Assembly: GCA_964427615.1 (NCBI GenBank)
Contig: CAYRUR010000003.1
Span: forward strand, 44,062-108,061
Reading direction: 5' to 3'
Source of the DNA: an uncultured Gammaproteobacteria bacterium
Lineage (GTDB): Bacteria > Patescibacteriota > Microgenomatia > Levybacterales > GWA1-39-11
Length of the DNA stretch: 64,000 bases
Made by a program: the position numbers and the translations under genes. The notes under the pieces were generated by a model, which ran no database searches, was not told where the DNA came from, and was given only the letters and a program-made list of their open reading frames with translations. Positions 2,976 to 28,370 of the stretch are shown one piece after another (positions within the stretch are counted from its first letter, which is position 1; each line of letters begins with the position of its first letter).

Positions 2976-3106
2976 ACAAAGTTGCTTTATGTGTTTTTGA
3001 GATTGATACATCTGTAACTAAGGAAAGAGTTATACACCTCTTAATGCTAGTTTGACCTTCTATTTTCAATTTTCGTTTTTCGATTTACGATCTAAGATTT
3101 CACCGT

Positions 3107-5110
3107 ATGGTACAATATGAGCGTATGCAATTTGAATTAGCTTCTGATTTTAAGCCTACCGGAGATCAGCCTCAAGCGATAGAAAAGCTTGAGAAGGGTT
3201 TGCAGCAAAATGTAAGAGACCAAGTGTTGCTTGGTGTAACTGGTAGTGGAAAAACATTTACTATTGCCAATGTTATCCAAAAAATCCAAAAGCCAACGTT
3301 GGTTATTTCACACAACAAAACACTAGCTGCACAACTGTATCAAGAGTTGCGTGATTTTTTTCCAAATAATGCAGTCTCTTATTTTGTATCCTACTATGAC
3401 TATTACCAGCCAGAAGCCTATATTCCTACCACTGATACATACATTGCCAAAGAAACCCAAATTAATGAAGAGATTGATAAACTGCGCCTGGCTGCTACTA
3501 CAAATATTTTGACCAGAAATGACACCATTGTCGTTGCCTCAGTATCTGCAATCTACAATTTAGGATCTCCTGAAGAATATGGAAATCGTTTTATAGCCTT
3601 GCAGGCAGGTGAAGCAGTAAATAGAAAAGATCTTCTAGAACAATTCTTAGATCTCATGTACTCTCGAAATGATTATGACTTCAAAAGAGCAACATTTCGG
3701 GTAAAAGGTGAAGTGATAGAAATTTTTCCTGCGTATGAGGACACGGTAGTAAGACTCGTATTGGATGCTGATGTACTTTCCAAAATTCAAATTTTAGATC
3801 CCATGACAGGAGAAATACGTGAATCACGCGAGCGAGTGGTTATTTATCCGGCAAAACATTACATCACAGAACGTTCTGTGTATGACACTGTTTTTAAACA
3901 AATACGGCATGATTTACAACTAAGAGTGGAAGAGCTGCAAAAACAAGGAAAGATGCTTGAAGCAGATAGACTCATGAAAAGGACAGAGTATGATCTCAAG
4001 ATGATGAAGGAAATTGGGTATGTCAATGGTGTTGAAAATTATTCCCGGTATTTTGATGGGAGAAAACCAGGAGAAGCACCTCATTCTTTACTAGACTTTT
4101 TTGAAAAAGCTGCAGGTAAAGATTGGCTGTTGGTAGTGGATGAGTCTCATATGACAATTCCGCAAATCAGAGGGATGTATAACGGAGACAGAGCCAGAAA
4201 AGAGGTTTTGATTAATTATGGTTTTAGATTGCCTTCTGCGTATGACAATAGGCCTCTCACTTTTGATGAATTCAGAGAAAGGATACACAGAACTATGTAT
4301 GTAAGTGCTACTCCGGCTGATTGGGAACTACAGGCAAGCGGAGAAAAGAATGTCATAGAGCAACTCATTAGACCAACGGGAATTGTAGATCCAGAAATTG
4401 AGGTGAGGTCTACTGACGGACAAATTCCTAACTTAATAGAAGAAATTAGAAAAACAATAGCCAAACAACAACGAGTGTTGGTAACTACCCTTACCAAACG
4501 TATGGCAGAGGATTTATCTGCCTTTTTGGAAGAAAAAGAAATAAAAGTAAATTATCTGCATTCAGAGATAGATACACTTGCAAGACAGGATGTTTTGGAT
4601 GATTTGCGGGAGGGAAAATATGATGTGGTCGTGGGAATCAATTTGTTACGAGAAGGTCTTGACTTGCCTGAAGTAGGGCTGGTGGCAATACTTGATGCTG
4701 ATAAAGAAGGATTTTTAAGAAGTAGATCTTCTCTTATCCAGATCATGGGAAGAGGTGCCAGAAGAGTAGACTCACGAGTATTGCTGTATGCGGATACGGT
4801 TACTAGATCCATGAGAGAAGCTATTGATGAGGTTGAAAGAAGAAGAGAATATCAACTTGCATATAATGAAAAGCATGGCATTACACCAAAAACAATTGAG
4901 AAAAGAATTCGTGAGAAATTGATAGAAAGAAAAGAAGAAGTCTCAGATGATATCAAACCACTCCTGGACAAAGAAGTATTATTGCCAGATGATAGAGAGA
5001 AAGTAGTAAAACGTTTGCGCAAAGAAATGCAGGAAGCAGCAAAAGCACTCGATTTTGAGACGGCGGCACTCTTGAGAGATAAAATTAGGTATCTGCAACA
5101 AGGAAGGTGA
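3107..5110 (+). CDS. uvrB: excinuclease ABC subunit B (UvrB)
   Basis: Walker A GVTGSGKTFT, helicase motifs, beta-hairpin region, C-terminal UVR domain (ALDFETAALLRDKIRYLQ); 667 aa. Confidence 0.95.
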   Translation: MVQYERMQFELASDFKPTGDQPQAIEKLEKGLQQNVRDQVLLGVTGSGKTFTIANVIQKIQKPTLVISHNKTLAAQLYQELRDFFPNNAVSYFVSYYDYYQPEAYIPTTDTYIAKETQINEEIDKLRLAATTNILTRNDTIVVASVSAIYNLGSPEEYGNRFIALQAGEAVNRKDLLEQFLDLMYSRNDYDFKRATFRVKGEVIEIFPAYEDTVVRLVLDADVLSKIQILDPMTGEIRESRERVVIYPAKHYITERSVYDTVFKQIRHDLQLRVEELQKQGKMLEADRLMKRTEYDLKMMKEIGYVNGVENYSRYFDGRKPGEAPHSLLDFFEKAAGKDWLLVVDESHMTIPQIRGMYNGDRARKEVLINYGFRLPSAYDNRPLTFDEFRERIHRTMYVSATPADWELQASGEKNVIEQLIRPTGIVDPEIEVRSTDGQIPNLIEEIRKTIAKQQRVLVTTLTKRMAEDLSAFLEEKEIKVNYLHSEIDTLARQDVLDDLREGKYDVVVGINLLREGLDLPEVGLVAILDADKEGFLRSRSSLIQIMGRGARRVDSRVLLYADTVTRSMREAIDEVERRREYQLAYNEKHGITPKTIEKRIREKLIERKEEVSDDIKPLLDKEVLLPDDREKVVKRLRKEMQEAAKALDFETAALLRDKIRYLQQGR

Positions 5111-5118
5111 GAGATAAA

Positions 5119-5140
5119 CCCCCGCAAAAAGAAGCGGGGG
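5119..5140. terminator. GC hairpin CCCCCGC-aaaaagaa-GCGGGGG between convergent uvrB and the 5160-5555 gene; likely bidirectional terminator
   Basis: 7-bp G/C stem read directly; U-rich tract on the minus-strand side. Confidence 0.5.
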
Positions 5141-5159
5141 CGTAAGATTCATTTGTGTC

Positions 5160-5555
5160 TTACTCTGTTACTCTAAAGTCCATCCTCCCTTCTGGAAGTG
5201 TTTGTCCCCATACTCGTACACGATAACCAGATTCTTCCAGCTTTAAGATGTGTACCTCAATTTCTTGAGTGCCTATGATGGTTTCTATATGCACATAGAC
5301 GATGTTGCCGGATTCATCGTAGTACCTCATTCTTTTGCTGTGAGGATACCATTTTTCTTCTTCTTCCCGTACTGCATAGTCCGGAAGATGCTTCTCTTTC
5401 CTCGATGAAATTTTAAGACTATATGCTGGCAGATATGAGAGGTTCCTAAAAATGAACCATTCTTCTAACTCTTTTAGAGTAATATCTTCTGTAAGAAACA
5501 AATCTATCCAATTAGCAGGTGTAATGAAGATCTTGAACATTTCTTTCTCCTTCAT
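5160..5555 (-). CDS. hypothetical protein
   Basis: 131-aa ORF, no recognisable family. Confidence 0.4.
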   Translation of the reverse strand: MKEKEMFKIFITPANWIDLFLTEDITLKELEEWFIFRNLSYLPAYSLKISSRKEKHLPDYAVREEEEKWYPHSKRMRYYDESGNIVYVHIETIIGTQEIEVHILKLEESGYRVRVWGQTLPEGRMDFRVTE

Positions 5556-5677
5556 TTACAAGGTGCCACGTTGTCTGTCGCAGTTGACAGATAGTAAATG
5601 TATTATAACTCTGTAAAGTGAAGGTGACAAGAAACAGATAGGAATGGGGTATAATGCTTAGTTATTCAGTTAATAGG

Positions 5678-5765
5678 TTACGAGTTAATGAGTTAACGAG
5701 TTTATTGTTAGTATTAAGTATAGAACGAAAGTTAAAAGGCAAAATTAAAAAATCAAAAGTATCCA
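5678..5765. repeat. intergenic motif block: GTTACGA-GTTAATGA-GTTAACGA array followed by a 7-bp-period decayed tandem array (agtatta/agtatag/aacgaaa/gttaaaa/ggcaaaa/ttaaaaa/atcaaaa)
   Basis: Periodicity visible by splitting the sequence in 7-mers; same unit types recur at 30035-30125. Confidence 0.5.
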
Positions 5766-5911
5766 TTCGACAAGCTCAGGATGCTGAGTTTACCGAAGCA
5801 CAATTAAAAAGTTAAAAGTTTGAAAACAAGCGTTTAGCGGTTAGGGTTGCGGAGCGAGTACGAATTTCGTACCCGCTCCAAGTTATCGCGTTGAGCTCTC
5901 CGTTAGTCTTG

Positions 5912-6130
5912 CTATTCTTCTTTCCATATTTTGTATATTAAATAGAGGGAAAAAAGAAGGGAAATAAGTCCCAGGGTAAGAAATTTTAACTGGAGTTCTC
6001 CAATTGAGAAAACTCCAACTGGGAAGGAAACGATGAAGGCTGCCTCTCGGTAAATTCTTTTTTTCGTGATCAGCCAAATAAGATAGAGGCCCAAAGCTAG
6101 ATCAAACGAGAATTGGAGCACTTCCAACAT
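5912..6130 (-). CDS. hypothetical small membrane protein (weak)
   Basis: 72-aa hydrophobic ORF in an otherwise long non-coding spacer. Confidence 0.2.
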   Translation of the reverse strand: MLEVLQFSFDLALGLYLIWLITKKRIYREAAFIVSFPVGVFSIGELQLKFLTLGLISLLFSLYLIYKIWKEE

Positions 6131-6329
6131 GTTTTTCTCTCTTTCCTCGAGAAACTCACAGAGACCCCTTCCGCCATTGGAAAAAGCTGTGAGTTCTAGT
6201 CAACTCAATGTGCGATAGTCTGTATTATACAAAAAAATGTCTGAATTTCAATACTATGAGACGTATGTTGTTGAAGATAAATAAAAAATGAGAATGAGTG
6301 TGGAGATTACGTTCTAAGATGAGTTAGAG

Positions 6330-7004
6330 TTACTCTTGCAGACGATAATAGGTTTCGTATAACCTTGCTGTTTGTATCAGTCCTTCACGAGGGAAATCTG
6401 CTGGGGGTGGAATATGTATGTGAAAAGGTGATGATGGATGATCTACATTTTTGACAATTGTTTCCAATGTAAGTATGCCAGAAGGGTCTTCTGTTTGTAG
6501 CTCTCGTAATAGTTCTTGTAGAGTTTTAGGACCATTTTGTGGAATTTGATAAAAGTGAGGATGGACTCCATTTTTGTGATATGGATAAGCAGATAGATCT
6601 ATCATGGTGGAAAAATCTTTTATACTTCTGTTATCCTCTGGTAGCGTTGATGCCACAAGGAGTCCCATGAGTCTTCTTCCTCCGAGAGATGCCTGATTTA
6701 GGGCGGTATGGTTTAGTCTTCGTTTTGATGTAGGTATATCTTCAACCCCAATTTCTTGTATTGCTCGTAAGTCAGTGTAAGTAAGTGCAGCTGAGGCTTC
6801 TAATAAGGAAGATCCATTTTGCACACCATGACTTATAAAAGGAAGTACCCTATCTCTATTGTTGTGTATTTCTTCTATAATTTCAGAAAACTTTTTTTGG
6901 ATATACTCTTTTCCTTCCCGAACTTCTTCTTCAGAAAACTCATCTTTTTCAGGATAATGAGAATATGGTTCATCAGATTCAATAGACATATTACTATTTA
7001 ACAA
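6330..7004 (-). CDS. hypothetical protein
   Basis: 224-aa ORF, acidic N-terminus, no family recognised. Confidence 0.4.
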   Translation of the reverse strand: MLNSNMSIESDEPYSHYPEKDEFSEEEVREGKEYIQKKFSEIIEEIHNNRDRVLPFISHGVQNGSSLLEASAALTYTDLRAIQEIGVEDIPTSKRRLNHTALNQASLGGRRLMGLLVASTLPEDNRSIKDFSTMIDLSAYPYHKNGVHPHFYQIPQNGPKTLQELLRELQTEDPSGILTLETIVKNVDHPSSPFHIHIPPPADFPREGLIQTARLYETYYRLQE

Positions 7005-7096
7005 ATATCTTTTTTGAACAATGTGAGAAGTTGATAAGAATTATGATTGAATTTTTACCTCATTTTAGGCTATAATAGTACACTTTGGGGAAAAGC

Positions 7097-7305
7097 GATG
7101 AATGAGTTAATGAGTGGCGCGTTAAAGAGTTAACGAGTTGAATTTTAGTATGAAGTATTAAGTATGGCAAGAAGAGTGTAGCAGTTTGACTTAAAATACT
7201 TACTGCTTAATACTAATTTAGATTTAAGATTTTTGAAAAAAGAGCTTTACAAACTTTATAACTTTGTAAACTCTTTAACCCGTTAACTCGTAACTCGTTA
7301 ACTAA
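7097..7305. repeat. symmetric motif block upstream of uvrA: GAGTTAATGAG..GCGTTAAAGAGTTAACGAGTT + AGTATGAAGTATTAAGTATGG ... mirrored as ATACTTACTGCTTAATACT + AACTCTTTAACCCGTTAACTCGTAACTCGTTAACT; includes an 8-bp-stem hairpin TTTACAAA-n9-TTTGTAAA
   Basis: Reverse-complement motif pairs read directly; fills the ~310-bp spacer before the uvrA start. Confidence 0.5.
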
Positions 7306-7313
7306 TAAAAATT

Positions 7314-10199
7314 ATGGCTGACGAGATTATTGTAAAAGGCGCGAGGGAACATAACCTCAAGAATATAGACCTGGAAATCCCAAAACAAAAATTAGTTGTT
7401 TTTACGGGATTGTCAGGTAGTGGAAAAAGCTCTTTAGCATTTGATACTATTTATGCCGAAGGACAAAGAAGGTATGTAGAGTCTCTTTCCTCATACGCCC
7501 GTCAATTTTTGGGCATCATGAAAAAACCAAATGTTGAGTATATCGAAGGTCTTTCCCCCTCTATCTCCATAGACCAGAAAAGCACGTCTCACAACCCACG
7601 TTCTACCGTAGGCACCGTTACTGAAATTTATGACTATTTACGTCTGTTATTTGCTCGTGTTGGTCATCCTCACTGTCCTAATTGCGGAACAGAAATTGCC
7701 AAAACCACCAAGGAAAAAATTGTAAATGAAATCACGGAAAAATATATTGAGATGACTCCTACCCGGGCTATGGTCTTAGCACCTTTAGTAAAGGGACGAA
7801 AAGGAGAATATCAGGATTTATTTAAAGACCTGCGCAAAAGAGGTTTTCAAAGAGTACGAATTGATGGACAACTATTTAATTTAGATGAAGATTTGGTACT
7901 TATAAAGACTAACAAACATACTATTGATGTAGTAGTAGACAGACTAATACTGGATAAGAATTACGAAAGACAGCGTATTTTGGAAGCAGTAGAACAAGCG
8001 CTAAGTATTGGAAATGGGGAAGTTATTATCTCCAAAGTAGAGGATAAAGGATTTACGTTTCCTGAAAAACCGAGCCAGATGCAAGATGAGCTTTTCTCAG
8101 AACGTTTTGCTTGTCCTAACTGTGGTACTTCAGTTGCCGCTGTAGAGCCCCGCTTATTTTCATTTAATTCTCCTTTTGGTGCCTGTCCATCTTGTAATGG
8201 ATTAGGATTGATTCATACAATAGATGAAGATTTGGTCTTTGCGCCTGAAATTAATATTGCAGAAGGTGGTATTCTGCCATTTTCAGACATTATTTCCAAA
8301 GACACATGGTTTGCCAGAACCGTCAGACAAGCTTTTAAAGAAAATGATATCTCGCTGTACATTCCTCTCAAAGACCTGCCTGAGGAAAAGAAAAAAATTA
8401 TTCTGGATGGTACTGGCAGTAGAGTGTACGAAGTAGCAGGAACCAATCGCTTTGGAGAAAAAACAACTATTTATGAATCATATCCAGGAGTTTTGCAGTT
8501 TTTGCTACAGCGGTATGCGGAAAGTGAGTCAGAACTGATAAAAAGAGAAGTGGAAAAGTACATGATGCCTACCATTTGTCAAAAGTGCGGAGGAGCAAGA
8601 CTGAAAGAAGAAGCTCTGGCAGTAACGGTGGGAGATAAAAACATTGCGCAAGTATCTCAGATGAGCATTGATGCCGTACATCAATTTATGTCAGGACTAG
8701 AACATACGCTGACCCTGAAAGAAAAAGAAATTGCCACAGTCATTTTGCGAGAGATACTGGCTCGACTTACGTTTTTGGTGGATGTAGGACTTTCCTATCT
8801 TTCTTTAGGACGTGAAGCCCAGACCTTATCGGGTGGAGAGGCACAACGTATTCGCCTTGCTTCTCAAATTGGAAGTGGTTTGTCCGGTGTATTGTATGTT
8901 TTGGATGAGCCATCTATTGGATTGCACCCCAGAGATAACACAAAACTAATCCAGACTCTTAAAACTTTGCGAGATATTGGCAACAGCGTATTAGTAGTAG
9001 AACACGATAAAGAGACGATGGAGGAGTCAGATTATATTTTTGATTTTGGGCCAGGTGCAGGTGAGTATGGAGGACAAATTATTGCCAAAGGTACCCCTGA
9101 AGAAATAAAAGAAGATGAGCATTCTATCACAGGACCGTATTTATCAGGGAAAAAAGATATCAATCTTAAGAAAAAAGAATTTTCTACTAAAAATACCTCT
9201 CATTTTTTAACGCTAAAGGGAGTATCAGAACACAACTTAAAGAATGTAGACATATCTATTCCGTTGGGAGCATTTGTATGTGTGACTGGTGTTTCTGGAA
9301 GCGGAAAATCAACACTTATTAATGACGTACTGTATCATGCCATTGCAGGAAAGAAAAACCCATTTCATAGACAAAAGCCAGGTGCGTTTCAAGGTTTGGA
9401 AGGGGATGAGCATATCAAACGTGTTTTTATGATAGACCAGTCTCCTATTGGCAGAACGCCACGCAGCAATCCTGCTACTTACACCGGAGTATTTAACTAT
9501 ATTAGAGAGATGTTTACGAATACACATGAAGCAAGACTCAGAGGATACAAACCAGGGCGTTTTTCTTTCAATGTAAAAGGTGGACGCTGTGAAACATGTG
9601 AAGGAGAAGGACAGCTAAAAATTGAGATGCAATTTTTACCGGATGTGTATATAGAGTGTGAATCATGTCATGGGACTCGTTATACACAGGATACGTTAGA
9701 GATTGAGTTTGAAGGTAAAAATATTGCAGAAGTGTTAAATATGAGTGTTGAGGAAGCATTGCCTTTCTTTTCATTTCATGAAGGGCTTTACAACAAGATT
9801 TTGACACTCAAAGAAGTAGGTCTATCTTACGTAAGGCTCGGACAACCAGCACCCACACTATCTGGTGGTGAAGCACAACGTATCAAATTAGCAACAGAAT
9901 TATCCAAAAAAGGAGCAGGAGGAAGTTTGTATCTGTTGGATGAGCCTACCACAGGACTGCATTTTGCAGATCTGGAAAAATTGATCAAAGTACTAAGACA
10001 GCTTGTTGATAAAGGAAATACAGTATTGGTAATAGAACACAACCTTGACGTAATCAAGAACGCTGATTATATAATAGACTTAGGTCCTGAAGGTGGAGAC
10101 AAAGGAGGAAATCTGGTAGCAGCAGGAACACCTCGCCAAGTAGCACAAGTTGCTGGGTCGTATACTGGTATGTACCTGAAAAAAGAACTCAATGTATGA
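7314..10199 (+). CDS. uvrA: excinuclease ABC subunit A (UvrA)
   Basis: Two ABC ATPase modules (GLSGSGKSSLAFDT; GVSGSGKSTLIND), signature LSGGEAQR twice, Cys-rich zinc-finger insertions; 961 aa. Confidence 0.95.
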   Translation: MADEIIVKGAREHNLKNIDLEIPKQKLVVFTGLSGSGKSSLAFDTIYAEGQRRYVESLSSYARQFLGIMKKPNVEYIEGLSPSISIDQKSTSHNPRSTVGTVTEIYDYLRLLFARVGHPHCPNCGTEIAKTTKEKIVNEITEKYIEMTPTRAMVLAPLVKGRKGEYQDLFKDLRKRGFQRVRIDGQLFNLDEDLVLIKTNKHTIDVVVDRLILDKNYERQRILEAVEQALSIGNGEVIISKVEDKGFTFPEKPSQMQDELFSERFACPNCGTSVAAVEPRLFSFNSPFGACPSCNGLGLIHTIDEDLVFAPEINIAEGGILPFSDIISKDTWFARTVRQAFKENDISLYIPLKDLPEEKKKIILDGTGSRVYEVAGTNRFGEKTTIYESYPGVLQFLLQRYAESESELIKREVEKYMMPTICQKCGGARLKEEALAVTVGDKNIAQVSQMSIDAVHQFMSGLEHTLTLKEKEIATVILREILARLTFLVDVGLSYLSLGREAQTLSGGEAQRIRLASQIGSGLSGVLYVLDEPSIGLHPRDNTKLIQTLKTLRDIGNSVLVVEHDKETMEESDYIFDFGPGAGEYGGQIIAKGTPEEIKEDEHSITGPYLSGKKDINLKKKEFSTKNTSHFLTLKGVSEHNLKNVDISIPLGAFVCVTGVSGSGKSTLINDVLYHAIAGKKNPFHRQKPGAFQGLEGDEHIKRVFMIDQSPIGRTPRSNPATYTGVFNYIREMFTNTHEARLRGYKPGRFSFNVKGGRCETCEGEGQLKIEMQFLPDVYIECESCHGTRYTQDTLEIEFEGKNIAEVLNMSVEEALPFFSFHEGLYNKILTLKEVGLSYVRLGQPAPTLSGGEAQRIKLATELSKKGAGGSLYLLDEPTTGLHFADLEKLIKVLRQLVDKGNTVLVIEHNLDVIKNADYIIDLGPEGGDKGGNLVAAGTPRQVAQVAGSYTGMYLKKELNV

Positions 10200-18991: not shown

Positions 18992-19075
18992 CTGAATCTC
19001 AAATCTTGAATCATACATTCTGAATCTTGCCTTCATACTTAATACTTACTTCTTAATACTTTATTCTCTTTCTAA
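18992..19075. repeat. 7-bp-period decayed tandem array (cctgaat/ctcaaat/cttgaat/catacat/tctgaat/.../taatact/tacttct/taatact), 12 units
   Basis: T at every 7th position across 11 of 12 units; contains ATACTTAATACT motif shared with 5.7, 7.1 and 30.0 kb spacers. Confidence 0.5.
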
Positions 19076-19128
19076 CCTTTTGATTGAGTGTTATAGGGTT
19101 ATTTGGTACAATTGTGAGGAGTAAAGAT

Positions 19129-19201
19129 GCGCTCGTAGCTCAATGGATAGAGCACTGGTCTTCGGAACCAGTGGTTGGGGGTTCGAGTCCCTTCGAGCGC
19201 G
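19129..19201 (+). tRNA. tRNA-Arg (anticodon TCG), CCA not encoded
   Basis: Cloverleaf folded by hand: acceptor GCGCTCG/CGAGCGC, D GCTC-aatggata-GAGC, anticodon stem CTGGT/ACCAG loop cTTCGga, T-arm GGGGG-ttcgagt-CCCTT, discriminator G. Confidence 0.7.
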
Positions 19202-19306
19202 CATTTTAATACTGCATAATTTTTCTTCCGATTCCATTTTATCTAGTACTATCAATTTTCTTGCTTAGGTAAAGGTGAGATAGTATAATAGGGAAGTCCG
19301 AATCTC

Positions 19307-19379
19307 GGGCGACTAGCTCAATTGGCAGAGCAAGTGGCTCTTAACCACTAGGTTCAGGGTTCGAGTCCCTGGTCGCTCA
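19307..19379 (+). tRNA. tRNA-Lys (anticodon CTT)
   Basis: Acceptor GGGCGAC/GTCGCTC (one G-U), anticodon stem AGTGG/CCACT loop cTCTTaa, T-arm CAGGG-ttcgagt-CCCTG, discriminator A. Confidence 0.7.
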
Positions 19380-19636
19380 CAAATCATTACTTTTCACCAC
19401 GAACTTCTGGTTATAAAGTTCTCTTAATAAGTTCTGTGGAAGATTGAGGTGTATATCAATTCTTTCAGGAATCATTTGCCCGCTACAAAGAGCTTGGAGT
19501 GAACTTTAGACATATACTTGATAGCTATGTTGCATAAAGAGGGATTGTACTTTGTTGGTTTTCCCATAAGCATACTTTAATTATACCTTTTTGAAGGTAA
19601 AGTTAGTTAAGAATTAACCACTAAACACTCAATAAA

Positions 19637-20398
19637 GTGTCCATCGTTTTGATATACTCCTCTTGTATGAAAAAGACAAAGAAAATATTACGCAGCAAAT
19701 TAGAACACTATTCTCGTGATAAAAAGCAACTTACTCCACCATTTGCCACTATGAAGATGTCGCAGATTTTTTGGTATAGCGAGATGCTACCAGAGTTTAT
19801 TTGGATAGATTCATTGGTAAGTTACTATGGTGAGCTTGAAGCATCTATTTATTACAACAAGGTACTAGATATGCTTGATGAATATAACCTAGATAAGGAC
19901 AAAATACTTCTTGGTACTGTATCGTCATTCAATCAGATTGACCCTAAAAGCAGAAAGCTCATTACTGACAAGAATAAATTTCTTATAGAGGATGCACTTG
20001 TTAAACCTTTTGGGGCAATTATCAATCTTTATCCTGATATACCAATGAAATGGTTAATTAAAGGTCAACAAATCTATGGAAGCAAAGAAGATGCTATTAA
20101 AGAAGTAAGAGAAGCAATACTTCGTTTATTTCCAGCAAAGGATTCTCATAGTGGTTTTTGCCGTGCCGTTCCACTAAATCGCTTTTTTAAGCATAATAAG
20201 TTATTTATTACTCAGAATATGGAGGAAACTATTAAAGCTATTGAGGAATATCCTAATGGTGATAGGTATAGAGCTGAATCATTTGCACGAAATGTTATAA
20301 ATATGGAGTTTGAAAGAAGAAAGGCGGAGGACAACAATTTTATAAAATGGAGTAAGTATTTTTGGAATTATAATTATAGTCTTACTAAATGTATATGA
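19637..20398 (+). CDS. hypothetical protein (first gene of tRNA-adjacent island)
   Basis: 253-aa ORF; 10-bp overlap with next gene implies an operon; no family recognised. Confidence 0.4.
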   Translation: MSIVLIYSSCMKKTKKILRSKLEHYSRDKKQLTPPFATMKMSQIFWYSEMLPEFIWIDSLVSYYGELEASIYYNKVLDMLDEYNLDKDKILLGTVSSFNQIDPKSRKLITDKNKFLIEDALVKPFGAIINLYPDIPMKWLIKGQQIYGSKEDAIKEVREAILRLFPAKDSHSGFCRAVPLNRFFKHNKLFITQNMEETIKAIEEYPNGDRYRAESFARNVINMEFERRKAEDNNFIKWSKYFWNYNYSLTKCI

Positions 20399-21636
20399 AA
20401 GACGAAGCAAAGAAAAAAGAGATTATTGATTTTACTGGTAAAATCGCCTCTTTGGGGCGTGAACTGATTGATGAAGTTATTAAAGTAATTGAGGAACAGC
20501 AGAAAGAAATAAAAGTTGACTTATTTAGTCCAGAGAAAGACCAAGTAATTAATGGTTTATTTTTTAGAACTCTCCGCTTTTATCACTCATTCGTAATTAG
20601 CTTCCATTTTTGGTCAATGGATATGTCAGAAATAATTACGAGGTCAATGCTTGAAAGTAAGTACTATCTAAAGTTCCTATTAGATAATGATAAAGAAGAA
20701 TTTTATCAAGAGTTCGTTAAGTATGGTATAGGACAAGAGAAACTCTATAAATTACATTTAGCTCGTTTAATAGATGAGGGGAAAATTGAAAAAACAGATA
20801 GTCTTGTAGATTTTATTGATTCTCAAAGTGATGACGAAATATGGGACGAATTAGTTTCAATTAAATTAAAAAACTTTGATGATATTAGAAAAATAGCTGA
20901 TTCAATTGGTGAAAAGGATTCTTATTCACTTGAATACCAACCTTACTCAATTACAATACATGGCCAGTGGCCAGCACTTCGGAAGTTTTATTTGAGAAGA
21001 TGTGAAGACCCGTTGCATAGGTTTCACTACATTGGTACAACTCAACTTCCTCCATTAGACCCTCGTACTTTATTTCAAACAGAAGCTATTTTTTATGATA
21101 CCTACTTACTATGGATTAAGCATTATGGTTTAGAAGATAAAATCAAACCTCTACTAGATAATTATGCTAAAAAGTTAGATAGTATATTTAGTATGGAAGA
21201 AAAATTAAGAAAAGGCACAGTTTGTTTTATTCAAGACGGTAATAGTATACTTCTCGCTTTAATTGAATACGCTTCAACTGATAGAAAATGGAATGGTATT
21301 GGAGGTTTTGCAGAAGAAGGAGAATCTTTAGAAGAAGCTGTTGTTCGTGAAGCAAGTGAAGAAACTGAAATATCTCTTGATAAGAATGACTTAAAAAGGG
21401 TTGCGGAGCTAAACTTCTCACCATCTTTTCAATTAAATGTCTTTTTAGCAAGCAAATGGAGTGGTGAGCTTAATATAAAGGATAGTTCACTAAAAGAACT
21501 AAAATGGTTTCCCAAAAGTGATTTGCCTTATGAACAGATGCACGAAGGCAATAGAGATTGGCTAGAACCAACTCTAAAAGGCAAACTAGTTAGATTGGTT
21601 GACAATAAACTAGAAGAAGTAAGTTCTTTTGAGTAA
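20389..21636 (+). CDS. two-domain protein: uncharacterised ~270-aa N-terminal domain fused to a C-terminal NUDIX hydrolase domain
   Basis: Nudix box GGFAEEGESLEEAVVREASEETEI (GX5EX7REUXEEXGU) near C-terminus; N-terminal region has no recognisable family. Confidence 0.6.
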   Translation: MYMKDEAKKKEIIDFTGKIASLGRELIDEVIKVIEEQQKEIKVDLFSPEKDQVINGLFFRTLRFYHSFVISFHFWSMDMSEIITRSMLESKYYLKFLLDNDKEEFYQEFVKYGIGQEKLYKLHLARLIDEGKIEKTDSLVDFIDSQSDDEIWDELVSIKLKNFDDIRKIADSIGEKDSYSLEYQPYSITIHGQWPALRKFYLRRCEDPLHRFHYIGTTQLPPLDPRTLFQTEAIFYDTYLLWIKHYGLEDKIKPLLDNYAKKLDSIFSMEEKLRKGTVCFIQDGNSILLALIEYASTDRKWNGIGGFAEEGESLEEAVVREASEETEISLDKNDLKRVAELNFSPSFQLNVFLASKWSGELNIKDSSLKELKWFPKSDLPYEQMHEGNRDWLEPTLKGKLVRLVDNKLEEVSSFE

Positions 21637-21938
21637 TTAAGTTCTAGTTTTAGTATGAAGTTGGTGTAGTACAGCCATATCTGATGATTCAGTTGATATT
21701 ATATTGACCTTCAAGGACTTTACTGGTGATAGTGGTGACTTCTGGAATAAAATCGGCTCTGCCTGAAACTCCAATTTCCCCAACATAGTTCCAGGAGTCA
21801 TAAACTTTGGTAGTATTTCTTCCAGAAGACTGTATTCTTTGTTACTGCATACTTGATTTTCATATATTCATATTCTACCAGGTAATATTAATTATTGTTA
21901 ACTACAGGTTAAGGGTTTATAATACTAAATTATCTACA

Positions 21939-22640
21939 AATATGAAAAGTGTCAGGGATTGGGAACATCAACAAATGCAGAATACCCCTCGTCCAGAAAC
22001 TCAAATTATAACCTTACTTACAGAACACTTAGAAAGTATTGGTAACCTGCGTAGCGAGGAAAATAGGGAAAGCTCAATAGCTTTTGAAGAGTGGCAATCA
22101 AGTGTTGATTCTATTTTAAGGAGAATATTCGGTGAAAAAAGTCCAGAAAGAGAAAAGTTTAATGAAATAAATTATTATCCGACAGTTGGGAGTATTAATG
22201 AATATGTAGATTATACGGCAGATTATATTAAAGCATATAATGATGGTCTGGATAAAGCTTCTGGACAACTCCGAAGTATTATAAAAATGCTTCAATCACT
22301 GGGCATGCCAGTATCTCAGCCTGTAATTAAAAAAACTGGTACCACGATTAGTGTAAATCCTATTTTTAATCAAAACCAGAACAACGAAATGAAACAAGAA
22401 CAACATCAAGAGGTAAATATTACCTTAGAACAAGCGTTGGATAATTCATTATCATATATTAAACAACACCACACGGAAGAGACTATTAAAAACGCAGAGG
22501 ATGTTCTACAACCTTTAAAAGAAAAAGATGTGACTTGGCCACAAGTTCAAAAAGCTATAATGTTTTTTCTGGGTTTAGGACGAGAAGCTTTTTTCGCTTT
22601 TGCTCCTGTACTATATCAGATGGCAATGACTAAACCTTAA
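21939..22640 (+). CDS. hypothetical protein (ORF extends to 21807 but upstream part is hydrophobic/low-complexity; Met at 21939 more plausible)
   Basis: ORF only; no homology recognised. Confidence 0.35.
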   Translation, partial: NMKSVRDWEHQQMQNTPRPETQIITLLTEHLESIGNLRSEENRESSIAFEEWQSSVDSILRRIFGEKSPEREKFNEINYYPTVGSINEYVDYTADYIKAYNDGLDKASGQLRSIIKMLQSLGMPVSQPVIKKTGTTISVNPIFNQNQNNEMKQEQHQEVNITLEQALDNSLSYIKQHHTEETIKNAEDVLQPLKEKDVTWPQVQKAIMFFLGLGREAFFAFAPVLYQMAMTKP

Positions 22641-23029
22641 TTGAATGTTTTTTTATAGGTAATTGGCCATAAAGTACTTATTCTTTTGAGCTTTATTTTT
22701 ACCAATTCTAATAAGTTTACTATCCATTTTATATTGTGAAATGACTAATCTATATTTATCATAATAGTCGATAGGTATAATATAATCATTAGGTAGTTCC
22801 TGGTGAGAATTAATGTCTGACTCGATATTAATACGCCAAACCTACTGCAGACAATAAATAATAGTGTGGTTTTAGTACTACCTTTAGTCCACATCATGTT
22901 GCAAGATTAATAAAATTAAATTGGAATCCCCATTATTGTATTCTTAGTAATAAAGCAATTCCTTCATTTATTAAGTAGTATTACAAGAAGTTTAATAGAA
23001 ATTAGGTGAGTATTGAAGCAATTTTGTAA

Positions 23030-24484
23030 ATGGTTTATGCTAAGAATGTGAGAAAAAAGAAAGTACAAAACAAACTGTACGTTTTACCATCTTCTGCAGG
23101 AAAAATAGAACTAGCCTTTATCCTTTTGCTCGGTGCGCTTATTTTTGGTGCTGCTATGATGGGAGGGCTTATTGGAAAGAAAAAACTATCAGAAACAGCA
23201 ACTCCTATGTCAACAGAAACCAATGTTGTATGTTGTGATACAGGGGATGGAGATGCTTGCAAACCACAAACAGGAGAAAATCAGAAAATTACTTACAATG
23301 GAGTAGAATATGGACTGATTAAATCGGATGTTCAATTTATAGAAGGAAATTTACATTTACAAGACTCAGGTCAAAAAGCAAATGGTAATCCAATTATTAT
23401 CAATCCTTCAGAAGGTCATGGATTGAGGATCCCACAAGTACAATCTGGCTGTGAGCGTCCTAATCCTGTGAGCCAGAAAAAAGATCTTTATTTTGCAAAA
23501 ACCCCACCTGATCCATACATGTTTATGAAACCCGGTTGGACTTATAACCAAATGCAAACTTATTGTACCTCTATACCTGATGATCAAATGGTTTTTGTGT
23601 GTAAAAAGGATTGCCAACCACAAGCCTGCTCTATTGGGAGCTCTGACCATACTATCAAGTGTTACGGCACTACCAATAGTGTGTATGACGTATATTTCAG
23701 GCTTAATGATTTCCCTTCTCCTGGTATTCCTGACTTTATTAAGTATTGTGACAAAACAGCAATTCCCAATCAAAAATCAAATGAGGAGATAAAACAGAAA
23801 ATTGTAGTACCAACAGGTGAAGGGGGAGATAAAAAAGAATCATTACAACTAAAGACCTTTTCTATTATTGGCCAACGAGCTGCCAGTCCTGTTTTTTCAC
23901 CTCTTTGTAAACCTGCTATTTATCTCTATCCTCCTCAAAAAACAAATATCAATGTACAGGTACATCCAGAAGGTCCCATGACACTTACTATTCCTCCCTA
24001 TCCTGCAAATGGATGGAATGTTACCGCATATCCTGATGGAAGAATTATAAGTGGTACAAATACATTTGACTATTTATACTATGAAGCAGAAATTCCGGAT
24101 GAGTTTGTCTCAGAAGGAGATACTGGATACGTGGTAGAACAGAAAAATATAGAAAGTTTTCTTAATACAATACTACCCAAACTGGGATTAAATGAGAATG
24201 AAACAAAAGCATTTGTAGAATATTGGGTAAAAGCGCTTAAAACATCACCATATTTCGCTGTGCGAATAGTTTCAGATGATGACTTACATGCTATGGCTCC
24301 TCTGACTATTTCTCCTAAACCCGATACGGTCATCCGCGTTACATTGCTTTTTACTCCCTTAGAAAAGAAGATATCCTTGAAAGAGCCAACTATTTTGCCA
24401 AAAATTCGTAAAGGATTTACGGTCGTCGAATGGGGCGGACTCTACAAACAAGATAAAGACCACCCCTTCACCTGTTTTATGTAA
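23030..24484 (+). CDS. hypothetical membrane-anchored extracellular protein with Cys-rich N-terminal region
   Basis: TM helix near N-terminus (LAFILLLGALIFGAAMMGGLIG), multiple Cys pairs, 484 aa. Confidence 0.45.
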   Translation: MVYAKNVRKKKVQNKLYVLPSSAGKIELAFILLLGALIFGAAMMGGLIGKKKLSETATPMSTETNVVCCDTGDGDACKPQTGENQKITYNGVEYGLIKSDVQFIEGNLHLQDSGQKANGNPIIINPSEGHGLRIPQVQSGCERPNPVSQKKDLYFAKTPPDPYMFMKPGWTYNQMQTYCTSIPDDQMVFVCKKDCQPQACSIGSSDHTIKCYGTTNSVYDVYFRLNDFPSPGIPDFIKYCDKTAIPNQKSNEEIKQKIVVPTGEGGDKKESLQLKTFSIIGQRAASPVFSPLCKPAIYLYPPQKTNINVQVHPEGPMTLTIPPYPANGWNVTAYPDGRIISGTNTFDYLYYEAEIPDEFVSEGDTGYVVEQKNIESFLNTILPKLGLNENETKAFVEYWVKALKTSPYFAVRIVSDDDLHAMAPLTISPKPDTVIRVTLLFTPLEKKISLKEPTILPKIRKGFTVVEWGGLYKQDKDHPFTCFM

Positions 24485-24547
24485 AAAAGAAGAGCGTTTA
24501 GCGTATAGTGTATAGCGCTTAGATTTTAGGAAAAACTATTAAACAGA

Positions 24548-24638
24548 CGTCATTGCGATCCTGAGCTTGTCGAAGGAGAAGCAATCCCCTTACGAAAAAA
24601 GATCGCCACAGGAACTAGCGTTCCTTCGCGATGACAAT
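24548..24638. mobile_element. MITE-like element, variant family (termini CGTCATTGCGATC ... TTCGCGATGACAA) preceded by GCGTTTAGCGTATAG heptamer motifs
   Basis: Imperfect terminal inverted repeat with same GTCAT...ATGAC ends as the 1068/26092 family. Confidence 0.4.
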
Positions 24639-24768
24639 ACAGTTTTCCCTTTAGAATTTCGAATTTAGTGCTTAGAATTTAATCCTCATTTTCTTACTTG
24701 ACTTTATTTATGAGCAGCAAGTAATATATCCCTCGCGCTTGTTGTAAGAAAGCCGTAAGAATAGCTCT

Positions 24769-26076
24769 ATGATATCTGCCCTGCCCAAAAAAACCTTCAA
24801 AAAAATTGCGAGTTTACACCAGAAAATGCAATCATTACCCAATGAAATACGGCATTTGATATATGCCAATGCTATGCTTTCATTTGGCATGGGAGTAAGC
24901 TCTCTCTTCTTAAATATTTATCTCTGGAAACAGAGCAGCGGTCTACAAGACATCGTAACCTTTAATCTCATTCAGTATCCTGCGATTCTTTTTGCATTTA
25001 TTGTTGTAGGGATTATCAAAACTTCAGTAAAACTAAAACAAATGATGGGATTTGGATTTTTACTGTATATTGCCGGTTATGCATTGCTGATGATGTTAGG
25101 GAAACATGCAGTTGAGTACCTTCTTCCTCTTGGTTATTTATTTGGTATTGCAACTGGTTTTTATTGGGCTGGCAATAATACACTCACTTTTCTTTCAACA
25201 AAGGAAAAAAATAGAGATACTTTTTATGCACTCAATGCCTCAATTGGTTCATTTATATCAGTACTTACACCTCTTGTCAGTATGCTTGTTTTTTCTCAAT
25301 TTTTATTGCATACCCAAAGTGAATACACCCGTTATTTTTTACTTTTCTCTGTAGCCATTCTTATTTTTAGCTTTGGACTGTACTACTCGCTCAAACTGCC
25401 AAGTACACATGTGCCTAAAATTCGAGCGCGAGATACTATTAACCCCTTAAAGGATAGAATGTGGCAGATCGTTTCACTTTCACTTTTTTTTGAGGGATTT
25501 AAGGGAGGATCAGCAGGATTTATTGCATCCATCCTTACTTTCCAAGTTTTGACAACAGAGTTTGATATGGGATTATACAACAGCATTTTTGCCTTGTTAA
25601 GTGCAGCTGTTGCTTACAAGATGGCAGGGCGTTTGAATAAAAAAAATAGGATGAAGTTTGGATTTGTAGGTGCTACGTTATTTTTATTCTCTAATATTTT
25701 TTTTATAGGCATGTTTTCCTCAACTGGAATTTTAATTAGCTCTGCTATTGCTCTTTTTGCCAACCCTCTCTTTAGTGTAGGACTGGCTTCATCATTTTTC
25801 AGAGCTATAGACCACAATCCCAATCATAAAGAAGAATATTATAAATACATAACGTTTAGAGAGTTGATTCTTACTGTAGGTAGATTCTGTGGTGCATCTT
25901 TCTTTCTACTATTCTTAAATATCGGCAGCCAACTCACTATGGCAAAAGTATGGTATTTATTCTTAGGAGTTATTCCTCTGATTTATTTTCTGCTGACCCG
26001 CCATTTTGAGAAAATGATAGAAAAAGAATTAGCGTTTCAAAGTACCTCATTGCTTGAAGAAGAAGCTCAGAACTAG
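24769..26076 (+). CDS. major facilitator superfamily-like transporter (12 predicted TM helices)
   Basis: 435 aa, polytopic membrane protein with two 6-TM halves; weak MFS loop motifs. Confidence 0.5.
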   Translation: MISALPKKTFKKIASLHQKMQSLPNEIRHLIYANAMLSFGMGVSSLFLNIYLWKQSSGLQDIVTFNLIQYPAILFAFIVVGIIKTSVKLKQMMGFGFLLYIAGYALLMMLGKHAVEYLLPLGYLFGIATGFYWAGNNTLTFLSTKEKNRDTFYALNASIGSFISVLTPLVSMLVFSQFLLHTQSEYTRYFLLFSVAILIFSFGLYYSLKLPSTHVPKIRARDTINPLKDRMWQIVSLSLFFEGFKGGSAGFIASILTFQVLTTEFDMGLYNSIFALLSAAVAYKMAGRLNKKNRMKFGFVGATLFLFSNIFFIGMFSSTGILISSAIALFANPLFSVGLASSFFRAIDHNPNHKEEYYKYITFRELILTVGRFCGASFFLLFLNIGSQLTMAKVWYLFLGVIPLIYFLLTRHFEKMIEKELAFQSTSLLEEEAQN

Positions 26077-26091
26077 AAGTTATTTCAAAAC

Positions 26092-26199
26092 TGTCATTCT
26101 GGTAAGCCAATAGGCGCATCCAGAATCTCGATTGGTTCATAAATTGATTCTGGGCAAGTCCTTCGACCATGAGCTCAGGACCGAATGGCCAGAATGACT
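26092..26199. mobile_element. MITE-like palindromic element, copy 3 (CTGTCATTCTGG ... CCAGAATGACTA), 108 bp
   Basis: Same termini and internal CCAGAATCT / AATTGATTCTGG blocks as copy at 1068-1152; extra CCAGAATCAG fragment at 26238-26248. Confidence 0.55.
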
Positions 26200-26262
26200 A
26201 AATAAGGAGGTTTTGAAATGAGTTCTAGGTAACTTGTCCAGAATCAGAAAAGAGTTTATAAT

Positions 26263-27003
26263 TTGGCTTTGATTATGGACTTTATATATGCTCTTGGTAT
26301 CCCACTAGCCATTTTTTTATTAAAAACACTAAAAAAGGCAAAAGCAGGGAGGCGGTTAGGTATTACCAAAAAAAATGAAGTATTTCTGTATTTATTCTTA
26401 TTTTTAGTGTCATTTGTTCTAGTTACTTTTTTCCCAAAAGAGTTAGACCAGTTCCTTTCTTCTTTCACGGCAGGCAATCAGCAGTCCACTTCTGAAACAA
26501 AACAGCAAATATCACAAAATACAACAGTTACCCGTGTTATAGATGGCGATACAGTAGAAATACAAGGAGGAGCAAAAGTGAGATATATAGGCATAGATAC
26601 CCCGGAGTCAGTCAAACCAAATACACCTATTCAATGTTTTGCCAAAGAAGCTTCTGAGAAAAATAAAGAACTAGTATTAGGCAAAGAAGTAAGGCTTGAA
26701 AAAGATGTTTCAGAGACTGATAAATACGGAAGACTATTGCGATATGTGTATGTAGGAGACACCATGATAAATGAAGTACTAGTAAAAGAAGGATATGCAC
26801 ATGCGGTCTCATATCCTCCAGATGTTAAATATCAAGAAAAGCTACGATTTGCAGAGCAGTTTGCTCGGGAAAATAATAAAGGACTATGGAATTCATGTAA
26901 TCAAGAAAGTACTTTTAATTCACAACCCATAAATGCAGTTTTTCAGTCTCCTATTATAGAAGCAGGTAGTTCGGCAAAAAAAAGGATTCTGGGAAATGTA
27001 TAA
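26263..27003 (+). CDS. membrane-anchored thermonuclease (staphylococcal nuclease/SNase homologue)
   Basis: VTRVIDGDTVEI...RYIGIDTPE...YGRLLRYVYV...EGYAH motifs of SNase fold; N-terminal TM. Confidence 0.8.
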   Translation: MALIMDFIYALGIPLAIFLLKTLKKAKAGRRLGITKKNEVFLYLFLFLVSFVLVTFFPKELDQFLSSFTAGNQQSTSETKQQISQNTTVTRVIDGDTVEIQGGAKVRYIGIDTPESVKPNTPIQCFAKEASEKNKELVLGKEVRLEKDVSETDKYGRLLRYVYVGDTMINEVLVKEGYAHAVSYPPDVKYQEKLRFAEQFARENNKGLWNSCNQESTFNSQPINAVFQSPIIEAGSSAKKRILGNV

Positions 27004-27128
27004 TACAAAGTATGGACTTGGCTCAAGAAGTGTTTGTTATTTTACTTCCTATTTTTCTATTTGTTACTACTATTATTGGAATCCTGGCAATTATTTTTGC
27101 AAGAAAGAATACTAAAAAGTGAGACACT

Positions 27129-28370
27129 TTACAAATGAGAGTATTCTTTTCGTATTTCCTCACGTTGATACTTGTCTGCTAGAAACCCATTTGGTTTTGT
27201 GGGTAATTTAGGTGCGTATGCCAAATATCCATTGCGCACTATATGTCCCCCATACTTTTTATTGAGACTATCTACCGCTTTTAAGAGTTTGTCTTGACGG
27301 GGATCTTCAAAAAGAGAGTAAGTAGTAACTTTTTTGTCTTCAATACTGCTCACCCAAATACTTATTTGCCGTACCATCCATTGCCAATTCCATTTTTGAT
27401 ATAAAAAGTAACATACTTCAAAAATATCTTGTCCTTTATCCATATACCTATCAGTCGTTTTTCTGCCTTGCATACTTTTTTCTCCCGCCAGAGAAAGTCC
27501 TACTGTTTTGGCTTTTTTATCTAGTTTGCGCAACTTTAATGCTACTTCTTCGCATAATTCATACATGATTTGTAAAATTCTTTCCTGGCTATATTCATTT
27601 TGAGGAAGACAATAGTTCCTGCCCACAGACTTAACTGTTTCCTGATGAGTGAAATGACGTACTAGACTCACATCTTTTCCATACGCAATATCTTTGAGAT
27701 GTAAAGCGCATACATTGCCAAATTCTTTTTTTAAATGAAAAAGAGGGTAGTCTCGTAAAGTAAGTAAATTTGTGATTCCCAGACAATACAGTCTCTTTTT
27801 CAATCGTTCTCCAATACCACACACTGTAGTCAGTTTGATTTGTGCATAAATAGTATCTAAATTTTTCTCATTAATTTCAGCAAAGCCATCTGGTTTATCA
27901 AGACCTGAGGCTAATTTTGCCAATAGTTTGTTGTGAGAAAGACCCACAGATACCGTAACCACAGGTCCAATTTCATTTCTAATGTCTGCTTTAATGCGTT
28001 CTACTACGCTAAAAATAGAAGGGTATAGATGCATGACAGGAGTCAAATCCATAAAAAGCTCATCCAAAGAAAAGAGTTCTACTATAGGACTATAACGACT
28101 GCAAATATCCAAAAACTTTTTGGTGATATCAAGATACCGGTCAAAATCAGCGGGGATAAAGATGATTTCAGGACAGATATTAACCGCTTCCCACGTACGC
28201 ATGCCTGTTTTTATGCCTTTTTTCTTTGCTTCGCGAGAAGCAGCAATAATACAAGTTCTGCCATTTGTTGCCGTAACACCAATAGGGTGATTACGTAAAT
28301 TAGGATTAAAATGTTGTTCACAGCTAGCAAAATAAGAATCAAAATCAATACAAAGAATAGTGCGTTTCAT
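27129..28370 (-). CDS. dinB: DNA polymerase IV (Y-family translesion polymerase)
   Basis: ILCIDFDSYFASCE... and SLDE motifs, little-finger domain; 413 aa. Confidence 0.85.
   Translation of the reverse strand: MKRTILCIDFDSYFASCEQHFNPNLRNHPIGVTATNGRTCIIAASREAKKKGIKTGMRTWEAVNICPEIIFIPADFDRYLDITKKFLDICSRYSPIVELFSLDELFMDLTPVMHLYPSIFSVVERIKADIRNEIGPVVTVSVGLSHNKLLAKLASGLDKPDGFAEINEKNLDTIYAQIKLTTVCGIGERLKKRLYCLGITNLLTLRDYPLFHLKKEFGNVCALHLKDIAYGKDVSLVRHFTHQETVKSVGRNYCLPQNEYSQERILQIMYELCEEVALKLRKLDKKAKTVGLSLAGEKSMQGRKTTDRYMDKGQDIFEVCYFLYQKWNWQWMVRQISIWVSSIEDKKVTTYSLFEDPRQDKLLKAVDSLNKKYGGHIVRNGYLAYAPKLPTKPNGFLADKYQREEIRKEYSHL

Follow-up and report, generated by a model that had tools for sequence, protein, structure and literature searches.

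A candidate split, DitB-less variant of the Aditi module with a lineage-specific NUDIX fusion

Introduction

Aditi was reported from experiments as an anti-phage system by Millman et al. 2022 and was described as two proteins, DitA and DitB, without detectable domains or known mechanism (bioRxiv 10.1101/2022.05.11.491447). In a later survey, the system is still listed as unclassified. Here, we describe a DitA-like locus in a 64,000-nt stretch of DNA from an uncultured bacterium (contig CAYRUR010000003.1 of GenBank assembly GCA_964427615.1, positions 44,062 to 108,061 of the forward strand), which is referred to as the window in the following. The locus comprises two overlapping genes, A and B, that match separate parts of DitA, and gene B continues into a NUDIX hydrolase domain. 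Two more genes, C and D, follow on the same strand.

Canonical Aditi, as found on plasmids of C. difficile and S. salivarius, consists of a DitA of 488 to 490 amino acids (aa; E of ca. 1e-214 to 1e-221) followed on both plasmids by an overlapping DitB of 354 to 356 aa (E of ca. 1e-120). The Aditi rules of PADLOC and DefenseFinder presumably require both proteins to be present. For the NUDIX domain, a parallel is offered by cyclic oligonucleotide-based anti-phage signalling systems (CBASS) and UG23, where a NUDIX hydrolase is likewise physically linked to a defence-type sensor (PMC9226505). Their 2TM-NUDIX arrangement recurs across many systems, whereas the fusion in the window is confined to a single lineage and is cytoplasmic and MTH1-like.

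Results and Discussion

The main features of the locus are listed below, with all positions given in window coordinates.

19667-20398, plus strand: gene A, predicted counterpart of the N-terminal DitA half (PADLOC DitA profile, hhalign), no Pfam family; the open reading frame (ORF) begins at 19637 and encodes 243 aa from ATG 19667
20389/20395-21636, plus strand: gene B, ORF of 415 or 413 aa depending on the start
20395-21189, plus strand: first 265 aa of gene B, the DUF5677 part, predicted equivalent of the C-terminal half of DitA (Pfam, PADLOC, hhalign)
20947-21027, plus strand: motifs S-x3-H-G-x-W and C-x2-P-L-H-R-x-H in the DUF5677 half, invariant alignment columns in common with canonical DitA
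21190-21207, plus strand: 18-nt junction AGTATGGAAGAAAAATTA between cassette and NUDIX domain, with an in-frame ATG at 21193; homology to L004 ends at 21189, and homology to the start of the L009 NUDIX gene sets in at 21208
21208-21636, plus strand: NUDIX hydrolase domain of gene B, MTH1/MutT-like (Pfam), with its Nudix box at 21304-21372

Judged by homology, gene A and the first 265 residues of gene B are the two halves of a DitA protein, since their PADLOC and hhalign matches cover separate DitA regions. Against the PADLOC DitA profile of 486 positions, gene A aligned with positions 3-234 (E 9.3e-12) and gene B with positions 250-442 (E 2.5e-18). Comparison of the family alignments with canonical DitA using hhalign placed the A family on columns 2-239 (probability 95%, E 3.5e-8) and the B family on columns 304-478 (probability 99.3%), at around 21-25% identity in the aligned columns. 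Together, the two parts span the DitA profile end to end, and complementary half-matches were also obtained with PADLOC for three relatives of the pair (loci L001-L003). Residues 52-203 of B match the Pfam domain DUF5677 (PF18928; 57.9 bits against a gathering cut-off of 27.1), which was recovered in all 27 members of the B family. Invariant columns of the DUF5677 half further include YGIGQEK and E/D-rich motifs that are found in canonical DitA as well. The pair carries the invariant DitA motifs YGIGQ-KL, S-x3-HG-W and C-x2-P-x-H-x-F-H. A preliminary description of this locus, made from the letters alone, had reported no recognisable families and an unknown domain of ca. 270 aa at the start of B. 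This was mistaken, as that domain is DUF5677 and both A and B match the DitA profile. The search of defence databases that it had proposed was carried out with PADLOC and yielded the matches of A and B to DitA of Aditi.

Start positions of genes A to D were refined using homologue lengths and exact-sequence look-ups. For gene A, ATG 19667 agrees with the lengths of its homologues. In case of gene B, the 10-bp overlap with gene A noted previously holds for a start at ATG 20389, while ATG 20395, the start used by the 413-aa copy of protein B at NCBI, reduces the overlap to 4 bp (ATGA).

Besides these sequence features, the pair shares with Aditi a compact arrangement of overlapping genes and an occurrence in defence islands and on mobile elements. 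It differs in that two proteins (243 and ca. 265 aa) take the place of a single DitA of ca. 490 aa, in that no DitB (ca. 355 aa) is found in the window or in 34 related loci, and in that a NUDIX domain is appended in the window protein. As currently defined, Aditi does not include this locus, which lacks both a single DitA polypeptide and DitB. The absence of DitB was established in several ways. None of A to D had a PADLOC DitB match at E <= 1, and a hidden Markov model (HMM) of verified DitB proteins, searched against six-frame ORFs of the window and of L001-L004, gave a best E of 0.55. Genes C and D were also considered as disguised DitB proteins and were rejected based on hhalign probabilities below 1% and the negative six-frame search.

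A related arrangement was observed on the Rhodococcus pyridinivorans plasmid NZ_CP040721 (L043), where positions 3047-4696 encode a 549-aa single-chain DUF5677 protein, again without a neighbouring DitB. It shares the domain with gene B (34% identity over 174 aa) but forms one polypeptide that is neither split nor joined to a NUDIX domain. DitB-less DitA-like genes therefore exist in unsplit form, too.

A and B were searched against 5.8 billion proteins, a metagenome scan added 24 loci, and local HMMs were applied to 34 loci other than the window. The protein search returned 25 relatives of B with 44-58% identity, all of them 262-295 aa long, containing DUF5677 only and ending where the DUF5677 part of B ends in the window. 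For A, 8 relatives were returned (241-252 aa). In every context recovered, the B-like gene is immediately preceded by an A-like gene, and the two overlap by 4-13 bp. With the local HMMs, A was found immediately before B in 31 of the 34 loci, the three exceptions being one contig edge and two B-like genes without A. None of the 34 loci showed a C-terminal extension on B, and none encoded DitB. Similarity between the window and the other loci is restricted to positions 19650-21200, and the host G+C content of pair-bearing loci ranges from 0.31 to 0.59. Comparison with the closest relative, L004, gave ratios of nonsynonymous to synonymous substitution rates of 0.046 (gene A) and 0.041 (DUF5677 part of gene B), which indicates strong purifying selection on both genes. 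The split DitA is thus a self-contained two-gene cassette that moves horizontally, is present in unrelated hosts and, across 34 loci, is never accompanied by DitB.

The surroundings of the cassette are varied. A clear defence island surrounds the pair in L001, encoding GmrSD together with an EcoRI-type methylase, two Mrr-type nucleases, an HNH-helicase and a serine recombinase, and the pair in L003 has HsdR, SocA-like and AAA genes nearby. In the low-GC genome of L001, a 480-aa DUF8370/PDC-M36A protein abuts the A/B pair with a gap of 2 bp (trio at 5822-8801), possibly representing a three-gene variant. L012-L017 are small elements with an XRE-type helix-turn-helix (HTH) gene and an FtsK-gamma-like gene, and L014 additionally carries a large serine recombinase (516 aa) near the small element. 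The same small element, consisting of small genes, the FtsK-gamma-like gene, A and B, lies on one side of a DEAD-helicase and NUDIX gene pair in L014, L015 and L017 and on the opposite side in L016, which indicates that it is mobile or invertible. Small elements carrying a serine recombinase agree with the reported enrichment of DUF5677 beside serine recombinases (PMC12632615). No DNA match pointing to a phage origin of A/B was obtained in 50,697 phage records, and the B family was not found in 2.9 million viral contigs. In four metagenomic contigs (L033, L038, L039 and L040), the B-like gene is disrupted and spread over two or three frames, these being either decaying copies or sequencing errors.

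Structure predictions were obtained for both halves. The AlphaFold2 model of the DUF5677 half is almost entirely helical (predicted local distance difference test score, pLDDT, 82; predicted template modelling score 0.79). It appears to form a helical bundle with modest fold similarity to HEPN proteins, in a comparison where only ca. 100-116 of the 265 residues align. The half is set apart from HEPN toxins and KNTase C-terminal domains by the lack of Rx4-6H: no conserved copy of this catalytic HEPN motif is present in the 27-sequence alignment, where the conserved motif is S-x3-H-G-x-W instead. A Foldseek search of the DUF5677 model against the PDB returned nothing significant, and the B-family profile found nothing among PDB sequences. 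The invariant Cys/His cluster (H-G-x-W ... C-x4-H-R-x-H) resembles a metal site and may be one, going by the conserved residues. For gene A, the model is of mediocre quality (pLDDT 66) and showed no structural neighbour. Its conserved N- and C-termini are predicted to be disordered, which would fit segments that fold only against B. Of the structure and profile analyses suggested in the preliminary description, the profile comparison placed A and B on DitA, the PDB comparisons of the B part were negative, and the A model had no structural neighbour.

The C-terminal NUDIX domain proposed for gene B is real, with residues 273-392 matching Pfam PF00293 at 55.2 bits (cut-off 21.1). The consensus of the Nudix box is GX5EX7REUXEEXGU. 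In B, the box at residues 306-328 reads G-x5-E-x7-R-E-A-x-E-E-x-E-I, with the catalytic E, RE and EE retained and the penultimate G replaced by E. Solved structures most closely related to the NUDIX part are MTH1/NUDT1 (E 2e-8) and the core of NudC (E 1e-7). An identity as NudC is not supported, as NF001299 scored 47.3 bits against a cut-off of 158 and covered the NUDIX core only, and neither NUDIX-like_N nor zf-NADH-PPase was matched in B by Pfam or NCBIfam. The MutT equivalogs of NCBIfam likewise scored far below their cut-offs. With MTH1/NUDT1 and MutT, the domain shares the WNG-x-GG and PY/F-x-QM ... W motifs and the complete set of catalytic Nudix-box residues. It differs from both in the G-to-E exchange in the Nudix box and in being fused to a defence-type protein. 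In addition, the 'DD' positions of zebrafish NUDT1, which we take to correspond to the base-recognising Asp119/Asp120 of human MTH1, are occupied by G-N in the window domain.

Combination of DUF5677 with NUDIX was found only in the protein of this organism among the matches from 5.8 billion proteins. The 415-aa fusion ORF is present in assemblies SRR7082976 and SRR7082966, both 100% identical to the window, and its occurrence in two separate assemblies counts against an assembly artefact. The NUDIX fusion is not a feature of the family; it is private to this organism, where three assemblies carry it. In L004, which shares 86% DNA identity, homology to the window extends from 19699 to 21189 and then stops. 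At that point, a stop codon ends the L004 gene (270 aa), and an unrelated minus-strand gene comes next. In the window, the codons AGT ATG GAA GAA AAA TTA of the junction lead into 21 nt that exactly match the beginning of the gene for P0027 (locus L009), a stand-alone NUDIX-NUDIX protein encoded next to a GNAT gene. P0027 starts with MRKGTVCF, and the corresponding window sequence is ...MEEKLRKGTVCF. The join is therefore end-to-start, with the in-frame ATG at 21193 being kept. Over the NUDIX part, B is 58% identical to P0027 and 50% identical to the NUDIX-GNAT protein P0028, neither of which lies in a defence context. We also considered whether a deletion could have brought B together with a NUDIX gene in its vicinity. 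However, the NUDIX gene that follows the pair in L014 resembles the window domain in the Nudix box only, and this source was dismissed. Based on the single-lineage distribution and the junction anatomy, a recent and possibly neutral capture of a separate gene is favoured.

Our preferred reading, to which we assign a probability of roughly 0.55, is that the locus represents a split version of an Aditi-type module that lacks DitB and has undergone a lineage-specific, probably recent NUDIX fusion. The overlap of the A and B genes suggests that their translation would be coupled, and the two proteins may assemble into a heterodimer reproducing the DitA fold. The pair would then act as an Aditi-type anti-phage module, probably through abortive infection, without the need for DitB. 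The NUDIX part would most probably be a formerly separate nucleotide-sanitising gene that was joined by a small, recent deletion or insertion, and it may still hydrolyse its substrate, either as part of the fusion or when translated from its own ATG. Several points weigh against this reading. A defence function of A and B is something we infer from homology, and the putative heterodimer is deduced only from split homology and gene overlap. Some pair-bearing loci are not defence islands, L002 containing signalling and transport genes and L012 adjoining metal-resistance genes. Further, the ORFs reported active in a screen in E. faecalis do not include a DUF5677 ORF that was assayed there (PMC12632615). 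These surroundings and the screen result would be in line with A and B being another kind of mobile-element cargo, with an addiction function similar to toxin-antitoxin pairs or a role in element maintenance or regulation, in which case likeness to DitA would not be informative on defence. The absence of DitB, which is needed to call Aditi, points in the same direction, as does the position of the pair immediately downstream of the HTH and FtsK-gamma-like small genes on serine-recombinase elements. However, A and B are homologous to the two halves of a defence protein validated by experiment, the pairs in L001 and L003 are embedded among restriction-type and other defence genes, and none of A to D matches a toxin-antitoxin family in Pfam, NCBIfam or PADLOC. 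Given also that the viral contigs and phage records searched do not contain the pair, which is thus not typical phage cargo, we consider a non-immune role unlikely.

An adaptive origin of the fusion, where the A/B complex senses infection and the NUDIX domain serves as effector or accessory enzyme acting on (deoxy)nucleoside triphosphates, NAD-derived molecules or a nucleotide signal, seems doubtful to us. In its favour, the Nudix box retains its catalytic residues, three assemblies show an uninterrupted ORF, and the absence of DitB makes another partner activity conceivable. For CBASS and UG23, it has been proposed that NUDIX domains serve as exchangeable effectors (PMC9226505), and the NUDIX part of B matches the PADLOC defence candidate PDC-S07 (E 6.7e-10), although no better than the generic Pfam NUDIX match. 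Yet only one lineage of the ca. 60 family members examined has the fusion, L004 as the nearest relative is without it, the NUDIX domain is most similar to stand-alone, NUDIX-NUDIX or NUDIX-GNAT proteins in non-defence contexts, and the NUDIX start region has been kept together with an in-frame ATG, as a recent accidental read-through would leave it. The more far-reaching idea that the split pair is an autonomous anti-phage system with a functional fusion, such that DUF5677 proteins would act via nucleotides or be regulated by them (for example through infection-triggered hydrolysis of nucleotides or of a nucleotide signal), is improbable on present evidence. At the other extreme, the fused ORF could result from an error in assembly or sequencing, or could be a pseudogene in decay, seeing that frameshifted B copies occur in the four metagenomic contigs mentioned above and that an indel of 1-2 nt at the junction would make or abolish the fusion. 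This is extremely unlikely, as the junction is identical in the window and in two assemblies from different runs, the 415 codons contain no internal stop, and conserved motifs are kept in both halves. Finally, it is very unlikely that A to D form one tRNA-integrated genomic island working as a unit. Two tRNA genes do immediately precede the four genes, all of which are in plus orientation, the G+C content of A, B and C is 0.31-0.35 compared with a window mean of 0.36, and assemblies break at tRNA-Lys and at a palindromic element downstream of D. Nevertheless, neither an integrase or recombinase nor a repeat of the tRNA 3' end is present, C and D are missing from all other pair-bearing loci, D has thousands of envelope-type proteins in its family, C and D are set off by gaps of 305 and 390 bp, C has a promoter-like site of its own, and base composition stays within ca. 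2 standard deviations (sd) of the window genes.

Under the preferred reading of a split, DitB-less module, the natural split marks a domain boundary of DitA, roughly between positions 240 and 300, and yields small, separately expressible halves for interaction and structure work. It also shows that DitA-type proteins exist and are selectively maintained without DitB. As two-gene rules would miss this form, Aditi-like modules may be under-counted. If functional, the NUDIX fusion hints at a nucleotide substrate and would offer a first mechanistic handle on Aditi, and an adaptive fusion would make nucleotides the currency of Aditi-type systems; if accidental, it represents a clean case of a mobile cassette fused in frame to another gene.

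Neighbouring genes and borders

The remaining features of the region are as follows.

19129-19202, plus strand: tRNA-Arg, anticodon TCG (ARAGORN; Rfam tRNA, 69.9 bits)
19307-19380, plus strand: tRNA-Lys, anticodon CTT, left neighbour of the block (ARAGORN, Rfam)
21807/21942-22640, plus strand: gene C, ORF; 232 aa from 21942; orphan with a hydrophobic C-terminal tail, partial matches only
23030-24484, plus strand: gene D, ORF of 484 aa with an N-terminal membrane anchor and 12 cysteines, member of a large unnamed family
24549-24635, strand not assigned: 87-nt palindromic ("MITE-like") unit with 10-nt terminal inverted repeats

ARAGORN, Rfam and the ORF list bear out the tRNA-Arg(TCG)/tRNA-Lys(CTT) pair followed by four plus-strand genes, with 287 bp between tRNA-Lys and the start of gene A. 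The idea that these genes make up one island or module has to be given up, and the unit is instead the two-gene split DitA cassette. Neither C nor D accompanies the pair in any of its 34 other loci, no integrase or recombinase domain was found in A to D with Pfam or NCBIfam, and positions 19000-27200 contain no repeat of the tRNA-Lys 3' end that could represent an attachment (att) site. C and D are unrelated neighbours and not part of the cassette. Genes flanking the block are housekeeping genes for repair and envelope functions: UvrA, transglutaminase-like, UvrC, solute-binding, DUF2079 membrane protein and GT2 glycosyltransferase genes upstream, and an MFS transporter (at 24769), a staphylococcal-type nuclease, a Y-family polymerase and an exonuclease downstream. 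On its right side, the A/B cassette of L004 has different surroundings. A scan of genome contigs with the flanking GT2 gene returned only a match of 27% identity and no syntenic relative. Base composition was rejected as a sign of foreign origin, because A and B lie only ca. 1.5-2 sd below the window genes and the housekeeping GT2 gene is equally AT-rich. Decayed mobile-element genes were sought in the three intergenic gaps, and translated fragments gave no PHROG match. A frameshifted "KPTKY" HTH-like frame by tRNA-Lys and a P-loop-like fragment between C and D, both negative against PHROG, were dropped.

The suggestion that the locus is of a phage-defence type stands for A and B, given their DitA homology and the occurrence of the pair in the defence islands L001 and L003. 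Gene C found only itself in a word-indexed search of 5.8 billion proteins and had no match in phage records. Its similarity to the PADLOC candidate PDC-S35 (E 1.9e-8) covers only positions 8-97 of 264 of that profile, and a match to phrog_29450 is weak (E 1e-6). On the Klebsiella plasmid NZ_CP132684 (L042), a 264-aa hypothetical protein (4995-5789) shows 29% identity to the N-terminal part of C (E 1e-3), and its gene is part of the accessory region of an inovirus-like prophage that is integrated there (Zot, II/X replication protein, secretin). Ahead of gene C, a promoter-like TTGTTA-17-TATAAT is present at 21895-21923. Promoter and terminator scans as a whole gave counts within ca. 1.4 sd of the shuffled expectation and were not informative.

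Gene D has no Pfam match, yet the earlier statement that it belongs to no recognisable family does not apply, since 6,347 representative clusters are homologous at E <= 1e-3 and 910 at E <= 1e-30. Its hydrophobic segment spans residues 30-48. The most conserved part of the family is a C-terminal domain of ca. 200 aa (residues ca. 270-484), which is an uncharacterised, widespread extracellular domain, and some relatives are fused to CarboxypepD_reg domains or ankyrin repeats. Most simply, D is an envelope protein of the host lineage. An equivalence of D with the 462-aa gene that follows the pair in L004 was considered and discarded, as the two are not homologous.

At the right border, the small size and the terminal inverted repeats of the element previously likened to a miniature inverted-repeat transposable element (MITE) were confirmed. 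The repeats are GTCATTGCGA / TCGCGATGAC with one mismatch, and the fold z-score of the unit is -3.2. Only one copy was found in the 64-kb window, however, and none in the fetched loci. Contigs L044 and L045, independent short-read assemblies of two sequencing runs, share an end at 24551, within the unit, which suggests the behaviour expected of a dispersed repeat. The heptamer repeats reported around the unit are present but weak: AGCGTAT x3.6 at 24493-24517 and TTTAGAA x4.6 at 24650-24681, with a Tandem Repeats Finder score of only 36.

At the left border, two contigs from separate sequencing runs (L005 and L006) start at 19352 and 19354, inside tRNA-Lys. These starts may mark a strain-level branch point or may merely reflect tRNA conservation between species. 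Just upstream of tRNA-Arg, positions 19031-19067 hold a short tandem array of CTTAATA x4.4, which can alternatively be described as a 14-mer x2.1. Positions 26263-27003, 1.8 kb downstream of the block, encode a secreted staphylococcal-nuclease-type protein that matches the PADLOC candidate model C3a212 ('SNc+LTD') with an E of 1e-34.

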